Virus record (IMG/VR): IMGVR_UViG_2648501149_000019
Source: a virus
Taxonomy: Duplodnaviria > Heunggongvirae > Uroviricota > Caudoviricetes
DNA length: 23,836 nucleotides
Reading direction: 5' to 3' (one strand)
Under the pieces are notes generated by a model. The model saw only the letters and a program-made list of their open reading frames with translations. It did no database searches and was not told where the DNA came from. Each line of letters opens with the position of its first letter. Position 1 is the first letter of the stretch. Below, one piece after another: positions 12,521-14,214 of this stretch. Made by a program: the position numbers and the translations under genes.

Positions 12521-12687
12521 TTTAATTCACATAAATTTGTTTTCTTTATGAGGGGCGAATAACGTCCCTAAACTAGAATATTTTAGCTGTCTTTTTGTTT
12601 GGGCAGCATTAGGTTGTTGAGTGGTTTCTGCTATTAAAGCAATTATCCAAATGGTATAAAATATGAAGCTGGGTTATATACTAGCGC

Positions 12688-13875
12688 TTACTCCATGCTA
12701 AGTGAATCCTGATAGCGCTTAAATGCCTCTGCGAAAGCCAGAGCTGCATCAGCATTTGATACCATGTATTCTTCAGTTATGCCTGTTTTGGACTGGAAAT
12801 ATAACTTTCCATAAATGCAAATTGGAATTTGATAGTTATCTTTAAATCGTCGGTCTGGTGAGCCATCTTTATTTGTTTTTGCCCATGTATGTCCAGCTAT
12901 GCTGGCATCACTCGGAACACCATCCTCTTCATGGAACCCTTGATGCTGCGCATTAATTTGTAATACCCGTAAGTCAATCAGGGCAAATACCCCATCGGGG
13001 CGGGGAATTACAGCAATGCCGGGATAAAGTAATATATCGTCGCCATTGGCGTTTTCAAATCGCATTGCTCGTCCAGCAAAACGAATTAGATCTGTTGAAG
13101 CGAAATCAAATACAACTGGATGACGATCAACTGCTCGTGTAGCTAACGTCCTTTCTGCAAACTGATCTGTAGCTTTATCTGCGGTAATATCCCATTTTTT
13201 GATGCTTGATTTTAAAATATCGAAAGCACGAATCATTGCAGCATAAGCCCGTTGTGAGGAATCGTTATTTTCGAAATCAATGACGATTTTAGTGTTATCT
13301 TCCCAGGATACAAGACGAGATACTTCTGCTTGTGTTTGTGGTAGCGTTACTTCAAGTTCTGCAATGCGACGTTTATAAAACCATCGAAACAGGCTTGATT
13401 TACGTCGAGCCAATTCGCTCTTTTGTCTTGATTCTTCTACAAGAGCTTCTTGTAAGTCCGTTGCTATTTCCGTTCTCTGTTCTCGTGCTTTAACGATCAA
13501 GTCTCGTAAAGGTAAAAGAGATGTGCTTGTCAAGGCCTCTACTGAGGCACTAGAGATTTCATTCATGCCTGCTTGTGGCATGTACATTTTTGCATTTGAT
13601 GGAGTGTTGTCTGAAATTAACCCAAGTGTATGAACAGGAGATTCTATAGACGACGGATTTAGCGGAATGGTTGTGGATGGTTTATCTTTGTATGGTAAAT
13701 GAGGTGATGTATACGATAAACCAGAACCGGGTAACCCTACAGTTGCTTTAATTCCTTTTGGGTTAACATTAACTGTGGCTCCGGGAACACCAAAACTTGC
13801 GCTTACCCCATGTTTACCGATGTTAAGGCGCACTCCGGGGAAAATGGTAAAAGTTTGTCTGAAGCGAAGAGACAT
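12688..13875 (-). CDS. DUF4236-like protein (395 aa) in an AT-rich island, opposite to the flanking phage genes
   Basis: N-terminus 'MSLRFRQTFTIFPGVRLNIGKHGVSASFGVPGATVNVNPKG' matches the DUF4236 signature as I recall it. Central coiled-coil, uncharacterised C-terminal domain. Gene and flanks (12521-14031) are visibly AT-richer than the surrounding phage genes. Confidence 0.75.
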   Translation of the reverse strand: MSLRFRQTFTIFPGVRLNIGKHGVSASFGVPGATVNVNPKGIKATVGLPGSGLSYTSPHLPYKDKPSTTIPLNPSSIESPVHTLGLISDNTPSNAKMYMPQAGMNEISSASVEALTSTSLLPLRDLIVKAREQRTEIATDLQEALVEESRQKSELARRKSSLFRWFYKRRIAELEVTLPQTQAEVSRLVSWEDNTKIVIDFENNDSSQRAYAAMIRAFDILKSSIKKWDITADKATDQFAERTLATRAVDRHPVVFDFASTDLIRFAGRAMRFENANGDDILLYPGIAVIPRPDGVFALIDLRVLQINAQHQGFHEEDGVPSDASIAGHTWAKTNKDGSPDRRFKDNYQIPICIYGKLYFQSKTGITEEYMVSNADAALAFAEAFKRYQDSLSME

Positions 13876-14214
13876 AAAATAATCCCTGTGTAGTAATGTC
13901 TAAAGTTACATTCCATACTGGCAATAATACTGCGATGAGACACGAGGCTCATTGAGGATTTTTGCATTTTGCTGACATAAATTCTATAGAAATTATGTTG
14001 ACAAACATTTTACAATCGTAAAAAAACAAATATGCTGTTAAGAGTGGTTACTTCGCCACACTGCTTAAACCTGCCGCCTGGCGGGTTTTTTGCGCCCAAA
14101 AAGCGGCACAGGACGTTAAACGCGCTGGTGGTTGCGAATACCGGTCTTTCAGCTTGCTGGCTTTTTAGACAAGAGTTATTGGTATGTCACGTTAACCAGA
14201 AAAGGGAAAAAGAC

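Follow-up and report, generated by a model that had tools for sequence, protein, structure and literature searches.

A reversed DUF4236-family gene in the slot behind Q of a lambdoid prophage as a candidate anti-phage factor

The window analysed here, a stretch of 23,836 nucleotides from the IMG/VR record IMGVR_UViG_2648501149_000019 (Caudoviricetes), is, judged by the genes it carries, a lambdoid prophage. Directly behind its antiterminator Q gene lies an AT-rich island (12521-14031) with a single gene on the minus strand (12688..13875), which encodes a DUF4236-family protein of 395 residues. This gene is a moron: it is absent from the corresponding slot of relatives and distinct in base composition. 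It is also intact and under purifying selection. We propose that it is a stand-alone gene of benefit to the lysogen, whose product is most likely an anti-phage or superinfection-exclusion factor, and we assign this reading a probability of about 0.45. The family to which the protein belongs, its genomic company and the slot in which the gene sits are described below, together with the explanations that compete with this proposal.

The island and its slot

The cargo gene begins with an ATG start codon and its product with the N-terminus MSLRFRQTFTIFPGVRLNIGKHGVS. Apart from this one, every real gene to the right of about 6.6 kb in the window is on the plus strand, so a first-pass annotation of the sequence had rightly singled out an open reading frame (ORF) opposed to all its flanking phage genes. 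The AT-rich stretch described there was also recovered, with a sliding-window GC content of 0.39-0.42 over approximately 12200-14200 against 0.50-0.55 in the flanks. The island as a whole has a GC content of 0.396, compared with 0.485 for the entire window, and the cargo gene has a third-position GC content of 0.293, lower than that of all 19 other genes measured (0.36-0.585). When codon usage was compared with that of the neighbours, the distance of the cargo gene was large for its length. The intergenic pieces found only in the island are lower still in GC, at 0.34 (12521..12687) and 0.31 (13876..14007).

Comparison with related prophages placed the boundaries almost exactly where the first-pass annotation had drawn them, the left at the Q stop codon and the right at about 14008. 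The Q gene (12155..12520, plus strand) encodes 121 residues and matches PF06530 (Phage_antitermQ) with an E-value of 3e-51. At the left edge homology with relatives stops at 12513-12520, the match to OkiPb01695 reaching 12513, just before the Q stop. At the right edge homology restarts at 14008 or 14009 in the two E. coli prophages with Q alleles 85-88% identical to that of the window (OkiPb01695 and SE11), and at 14020 and 14036 in phiP27 and Stx2d phage 112808, respectively. From the endpoints in the prophages with related Q, the insert therefore spans about 12514/12521-14007. Against phiP27 and Stx2d phage 112808, whose Q proteins are 45-48% identical to that of the window, homology already ends about 50 bp into Q (~12205). 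A 16-nt inverted repeat flanking the gene (12509-12524 and 13901-13916) was considered as an insertion signature and rejected, as 34% of shuffled sequences yield one.

The slot is variably filled. It is empty in Stx2d phage 112808, where 37 bp only separate the flanks. In phiP27 it holds the forward gene L22, which matches PD-Lambda-1 (E 2e-89) and carries a T5orf172/MUG113 (GIY-YIG-like) domain. OkiPb01695 has a Type IIG restriction enzyme-methyltransferase (E 3e-211) together with specificity (S) subunits at this position, and SE11 a reversed OmpC porin gene plus an IS5 element; the 85-88% identical Q alleles thus travel with other cargo. The O157:H7 Stx2a phage Stx2a_WGPS2 (NC_049941.1) has two overlapping reversed genes (locus 1361-2924) for proteins of 178 and 342 residues, the former membrane-like; neither gave a match in PADLOC. 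Relatives that share these flanks either lack an insert or carry other genes there, which bears out the earlier view of horizontally acquired cargo in a real hotspot. The gene is not core, and its composition sets it apart from its neighbours.

Among 5,426 complete E. coli genomes, 2,841 carry the block on the right flank (14036-14412), at 5,607 places in all, and only 13 carry the island. The cargo gene is therefore a rare accessory gene. The Q allele (at least 90% identity) occurs together with the island in the same 13 genomes, which include eight near-clonal isolates. In E. coli, prophage hotspots have been described as a major reservoir of defence systems (bioRxiv 10.1101/2022.05.12.491691).

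Domain structure of the protein

The N-terminus, which had been recognised as DUF4236-like, matches Pfam DUF4236 (PF14020) over residues 3-56 (E 7e-20; score 71.7 bits, cut-off 27), an alignment that takes in all 55 positions of the profile. Over nearly its full length (residues 1-393) the protein also matches phrog_17982, positions 1-382 of 390 (E 1.2e-170), a family annotated as of 'unknown function'. An AlphaFold2 model was built on an alignment of 31 sequences. In the model the DUF4236 domain (13708..13869, minus strand) is a glycine-rich beta-meander with strands at residues 7-12, 15-20, 23-30, 33-38 and 41-47. It is followed by a linker, residues 57-121 (13513..13707, minus strand), of which residues 57-88 are variable and residues 89-121 conserved. 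The conserved part, with the motif NxPSNAK.YMPQAGMNEISSASVE.LTS, is modelled as disordered, and the predicted local distance difference test (pLDDT) score is below 50 for residues 65-121.

The coiled coil and the unassigned C-terminal domain of the first-pass annotation correspond in the model to an antiparallel helical hairpin, residues 123-194 (13294..13509, minus strand; helices 123-160 and 164-194), and to an alpha/beta domain, residues 197-393 (12697..13287, minus strand). The latter is modelled, as a very confident domain, as a beta-sandwich resembling a pleckstrin homology (PH) domain with a C-terminal helix. Seven of its residues never vary in either family alignment: W228, W331, N335, D341, R343, N347 and G365. 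For R242 this holds in one of the two and almost in the second, and D229, R251, N275, G278, P285, E316, D323, E368 and S373 are nearly invariant. As read from the alignments, this pattern is characteristic of a site for binding or catalysis and not of a scaffold.

The linker, the hairpin and the C-terminal domain gave no match to any Pfam family or Protein Data Bank (PDB) sequence; profile searches against PDB sequences with two alignments returned nothing, or merely coiled-coil noise, and a Foldseek search against BFVD gave no match at E ≤0.001. DUF4236 covers 14% of the protein, so that the remaining 340 residues, including the best-conserved domain, lie outside Pfam. A search with DUF4236 only returned nothing but stand-alone mini-proteins of 44-105 residues and fragments.

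Size, spread and selection of the family

A search of the full library with residues 100-395 gave 2,908 clusters (50% identity) at E ≤0.001 and 405 at E ≤1e-30. DUF4236 is present in 61 of the 76 members of 330-430 residues, and when 76 members were scanned singly against Pfam (E ≤1) it was the sole recurrent family. Longer forms are frequent: 62 of the 149 top representatives have at least 440 residues, and 48 of these 62 have a hydrophobic helix 30-50 residues past the module shared with the window protein. Six of ten long relatives scanned carry SH3_3/SH3_4, PG_binding_1 or PDZ domains, which in the sequences read lie beyond the hydrophobic segment. The layout of a transmembrane helix followed by envelope domains implies that the three-part module is cytoplasmic and tethered to the membrane and the cell wall.

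Homologues of about 80% identity were found in Serratia, Klebsiella, Yersinia, Pectobacterium, Enterobacter and Edwardsiella, and of 62% identity in Rhodobacterales. The close subfamily occurs in 17 of approximately 185,000 species-representative genomes. In most of the other loci the GC content of the family gene is likewise below that of its host. The exact protein is an E. coli protein found on 29 contigs; alleles of 90% identity are found on several hundred more, also from Cronobacter. At the DNA level the Klebsiella copy is similar only across the ORF and the adjoining 27 bp upstream.

The ORF is intact in all seven copies compared. Against the Klebsiella and Serratia copies and a second E. 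coli (O8) copy the ratio of nonsynonymous to synonymous substitution rates (dN/dS) is 0.08-0.09; for the most closely related E. coli alleles the value is 0.21-0.40, with the recent substitutions falling mostly in the linker. With hundreds of full-length homologues and a dN/dS of this order, the 395-residue frame is no chance ORF.

Genomic company of family members

Fourteen loci with 102 neighbouring ORFs were compared and no conserved partner gene was found among them. Known defence genes lie within about 5 kb of the family gene in 5 of some 13 independent contexts, a count that carries no background correction. In an ICE (an integrative, conjugative element) of Serratia the gene adjoins GajA and GajB (Gabija, E = 0), and at an E. 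coli prophage end it adjoins a DUF2971 gene matching PDC-S31. The Klebsiella indica copy adjoins an integrase and ABC-3C CTD1; at a Klebsiella prophage end the gene lies past the tail fibre, beside smpB/ssrA. Resolvase, transposase and VgrG genes are neighbours in other loci.

Long forms keep similar company. The Azospirillum gene has HEPN/MNT, AbiJ-like and AcrVA2-like genes nearby, the Bosea gene LmuB (Lamassu), ABC-3C MC3 and CTD7 and IS66, and the Methylocella gene a RES-Xre toxin-antitoxin pair about 3 kb off. We note that a cluster of QueC, a fusion of PfkB and nucleoside 2-deoxyribosyltransferase (NDT), an Ogg-HhH glycosylase and a roughly 100-residue ORF recurs near the long DUF4236-SH3 genes of Azospirillum (3407-6702) and Bosea (9789-13163); this QueC/NDT/Ogg neighbourhood is possibly functional.

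Transcription around the gene

The DNA 5′ of the cargo gene (13876..14007) is specific to the island and matches only other island-bearing genomes (L003 and L004). It should contain the gene's own promoter. A plus-strand hairpin with a T-run is present at 13933-13964 (z = -3.7). Between this hairpin and the putative late promoter, at 13968-14005, lies a 38-bp near-palindrome (TTTGCTGACATAAATTCTATAG / CTATAGAAATTATGTTGACAAA). Such a palindrome arises in 0.7% of 300 shuffles and is kept in L003 and L004; being non-random and conserved, it is a candidate operator, and it hints at regulated transcription of the cargo gene. The region 3′ of the gene (12521..12687) likewise matches only the same two genomes. 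It has two plus-strand hairpins at about 12551-12569 and 12586-12607, and the plus-strand fold has a z-score of -3.4; the minus-strand fold is no better than that of shuffled sequences, and neither strand of this region has the T-run of a canonical terminator.

To the right of the island, a promoter-like sequence TTTACA-N16-TATGCT (14009..14036, plus strand) opens the block that is common to the relatives whatever their cargo; SE11 has TTTACG-N16-TATGAT at the same position. About 30 bp downstream is an intrinsic terminator (14067..14091, plus strand) with a 9-bp stem followed by U6 (-22.2 kcal/mol), whose stem is preserved through compensatory changes in an alignment of five phages. PMC7547250 describes P_R' of Stx phages as a constitutive promoter terminated directly downstream. 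As the promoter-like site followed at once by a terminator has this design, we infer that the block is P_R'/t_R'. A published comparison of pR' regions notes that those of stx2d type lack the pR' site defined in O157 strains, and it maps no pR' for phages of the present type (PMC6266700). In the Stx2d phage, with its empty slot, the corresponding interval is the largest non-coding stretch between Q and stx, and in no other was a promoter-like site seen with a terminator behind it.

The first-pass annotation had proposed that, if the late promoter lay right after Q, late transcription would run antisense through the reversed gene. This part of it is not supported. In every relative the cargo sits between the Q stop codon and the promoter/terminator block at about 14008; the putative late promoter lies beyond the cargo, and late transcription would therefore diverge from the DUF4236 gene. 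A promoter placed slightly further to the right would still lie beyond it. Antisense RNA could come only from read-through of the Q operon (early rightward transcription).

The first gene past the block (14215..14412, plus strand) belongs to the right flank and not to the island. It encodes a weakly TrmB-like winged helix of 65 residues (Pfam TrmB, E 0.003, below cut-off), and RefSeq annotates a 198-bp gene in relatives as TrmB-like or hypothetical. A longer ORF of 126 residues (14032-14412) was rejected as a gene, since the terminator, which is conserved, falls within its first 60 codons and the relatives start at the ATG at 14215.

Other features of the window

The prophage opens with an integrase gene (1-1314, minus strand). 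Near it is a second AT-rich stretch at about 3200-5000 (GC 0.36-0.40), beside which lies a reversed SPFH/Band-7 gene (2439-3266); the region 2439-5000 is probably another cargo region. A gene for a cI-like S24 repressor follows at 5822-6514 (minus strand). At 7771-7959 (plus strand) isrK (57.6 bits) and C4 antisense RNA (85 bits) are matched in tandem in Rfam and form a P1/P7-type antirepressor-control module within a listed ORF of 298 residues (7480-8376). The replication genes (8785-11901), a Rha-like gene and an 85-residue ORF are on the plus strand.

The rightward genes past the cargo include a methylase, three tRNAs, a TerB-like gene, a lysozyme and the large terminase, all on the plus strand. 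Compared with phiP27, Stx2d phage 112808 and an O158:H23 prophage, the methylase gene lacks 95 bp (14500-14680, with the junction after about 14585). This deletion removes the normal start codon and the catalytic DPPY motif, so the 312-residue ORF that is left (GTG at 14588) probably represents a remnant without activity. The three tRNAs, Met(CAT)/Arg/Arg, lie within 15567-16399 and are the ileZ-argN-argO set of Stx phages. The TerB-like gene (16103-16399; phrog_632, 'tellurite resistance') occupies the place of stxAB in phiP27 and the Stx2d phage, and the prophage is accordingly an stx-less relative of the Stx phages. Just 3′ of the TerB-like gene and a small ORF, and upstream of the lysis region, the small RNA STnc100 is matched at 16571-16751 (plus strand) with 117 bits in Rfam against a gathering score of 47.

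Proposed role and alternatives

In the reading that we favour, the gene would be a self-contained accessory cargo gene, placed between the Q stop and the late-promoter block and expressed in the lysogen from its own, possibly operator-controlled, promoter. Its product would protect the lysogen from other phages by superinfection exclusion or abortive infection. How the parts might contribute can be sketched with low confidence only. The helical hairpin may drive oligomerisation; the PH-like C-terminal domain, in which Trp, Arg, Asn and Asp residues are invariant, may be the sensor that binds a ligand or trigger; and the DUF4236 beta-meander may serve as the assembly or output part. Action would perhaps take place at the cytoplasmic face of the inner membrane, the prophage version being conceivably a soluble form that lacks the transmembrane anchor. 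In about half of the relatives sampled, a single transmembrane helix and a periplasmic domain that binds peptidoglycan come after the module.

The earlier suggestion of an abortive-infection or defence role has support by association only, as the slot holds PD-lambda-1 and a Type IIG enzyme in relatives and defence genes neighbour other family members. It gained nothing from the models of known systems: the protein matches no PADLOC-DB v2.0.0 model at E ≤0.1 and no NCBIfam model. This and several further observations weigh against a defence role or against parts of its mechanism. Guilt by association is weak evidence here because the cargo of mobile elements also includes anti-defence, virulence and envelope genes. 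The Paracoccus, Phaeobacter and Methylocella contexts have no obvious defence neighbours, and the first two copies stand alone among housekeeping genes. The deposited phage collection holds a single full-length homologue, a 35%-identical protein of the cyanophage Mea-Yong924-1 of Microcystis (locus 5067-6140), which is encoded right after the large terminase and in the same orientation, a place unlike the moron sites of enterobacterial prophages. The window protein has no transmembrane segment (maximum 19-residue hydropathy 1.3), and a consensus scan of the region upstream of the gene gave no minus-strand sigma-70 promoter. A literature search found one passing mention of DUF4236 and nothing relevant for PF14020.

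A wider extension of the same idea is possible, if on the doubtful side. The DUF4236/coiled-coil/PH-like module could be a new, widespread family of single-protein immune sensors lacking any recognisable classical effector, in which the long forms link peptidoglycan across the membrane to a cytoplasmic module and the prophage version is a soluble, portable exclusion factor. The long forms might then sense or answer phage attack on the envelope, though we hold this only tentatively. With similar reserve, the PH-like domain could be regarded as a new binder of a ligand or trigger and DUF4236 as a new output or assembly domain.

The strongest alternative, which we nevertheless consider unlikely, is an accessory protein of the envelope or of lysogenic conversion with no role in phage defence, the family being a cytoplasmic scaffold tethered to membrane and cell wall and concerned, for instance, with envelope stress, cell shape or division, and the soluble form modulating or mimicking that host function. 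The fusion of the module to a transmembrane helix and SH3b, PG_binding_1 or PDZ domains, modules typical of the envelope and cell wall, in long relatives is what such a protein would lead one to expect; the PH-like fold and the hairpin resemble membrane-peripheral scaffolds, no effector domain is recognisable, and some copies sit among housekeeping genes. The distribution of the family argues the other way, being patchy, not syntenic, compositionally foreign and limited for the close subfamily to those 17 genomes. Moreover, the three long forms examined are in defence islands or near toxin-antitoxin genes, not near genes of the cell wall or of division.

It is improbable that the protein is a counter-defence or other element-benefiting factor, such as an inhibitor of host immunity or of competing elements, which would be kept as cargo for its help in establishing the element. 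Genes of this kind, too, cluster in the variable regions of phages and ICEs, an AcrVA2-like gene lies near one copy, and the Microcystis homologue is inside a forward array by terL. Anti-defence proteins as typically described, however, are small and early-expressed. Proteins of 395-700 residues with membrane-anchored or peptidoglycan-binding forms are unlike them, the gene is reversed relative to the lytic operons and outside the putative late transcript, and many copies are chromosomal with no phage around.

Slightly less probable still is that the gene is a functional partner of this Q allele, regulating late transcription or the choice between lysis and lysogeny, with the palindrome as part of a Q/P_R' module. 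Such a partnership would account for the strict co-occurrence of Q allele and island in the same 13 genomes, for mosaic breakpoints relative to phiP27 and the Stx2d phage that enclose Q and the gene together, and for a non-random palindrome between the gene and the putative P_R'. With eight near-clonal isolates among the 13, however, the linkage may simply reflect recent common descent. It is weakened further by the related Q alleles, which are accompanied by a restriction enzyme or a porin instead, homology breaking at the Q stop, and by the wide occurrence of the family in the absence of Q, at the ends of prophages, in ICEs and in alphaproteobacterial chromosomes. That the gene is a passenger in decay or without function, such as a pseudogene or a spurious ORF, as the lack of a clear promoter and the truncated neighbouring methylase of a perhaps degrading prophage could suggest, is very improbable for an ORF intact in 7 of 7 copies, with a dN/dS of 0.08-0.09, invariant residues and a very confident AlphaFold2 domain model.

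Significance and comparison with known systems

A moron in a cargo hotspot of a prophage is a textbook phenomenon; the protein family is not. Across some 2,900 clusters it has a well-folded and strongly conserved domain without a name, a solved relative or a literature, and its genomic company points to phage defence. Should the proposed role be correct, a new family of single-gene defences that PADLOC v2.0.0 lacks would have been added, DUF4236 would gain a first functional handle, and the interval from Q to the late promoter in Stx-type and related lambdoid prophages would be established as a place to mine for such systems. The flank of the slot is present in about half of the complete E. 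coli genomes, and the gene pair of Stx2a_WGPS2 is a further candidate cargo.

The known entries closest to the protein in sequence, Pfam DUF4236 and phrog_17982, match it and yet are labels without a function. In fold, the C-terminal domain is PH-like as modelled and a candidate member of the PH superfold, which includes bacterial PH-domain proteins such as PDB 3b77. BstA offers a conceptual analogy, as one prophage-encoded protein of the lysogen that guards against other phages, a single-protein prophage defence (PMC8585504). The likeness lies in the proposed role, and the two proteins are not known to share domains. BstA works by abortive infection at sites of phage replication, a mechanism that nothing supports for the cargo protein.

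The comparison with PD-lambda-1 (L22 of phiP27) is one of place and size: the slot is identical, the prophage backbone closely related, and a single gene of about 400 codons is present in each. PD-lambda-1 has reportedly been validated as a defence gene by Vassallo and colleagues in 2022. The two proteins have no sequence kinship, PD-lambda-1 being encoded by a forward gene and having a T5orf172/MUG113 domain, whereas the window protein is without such a Pfam domain. The morons of the lambdoid interval between Q and lysis include the DLP12 nmpC-type porins and the stx genes. The cargo protein is unrelated to the products of these, and its gene, unlike stx, lies upstream of the putative P_R' and not in the late transcript. 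With them it shares the slot and the form of a discrete insert of atypical composition, often reversed, of which the OmpC gene of SE11 and the gene pair of Stx2a_WGPS2 are further examples.

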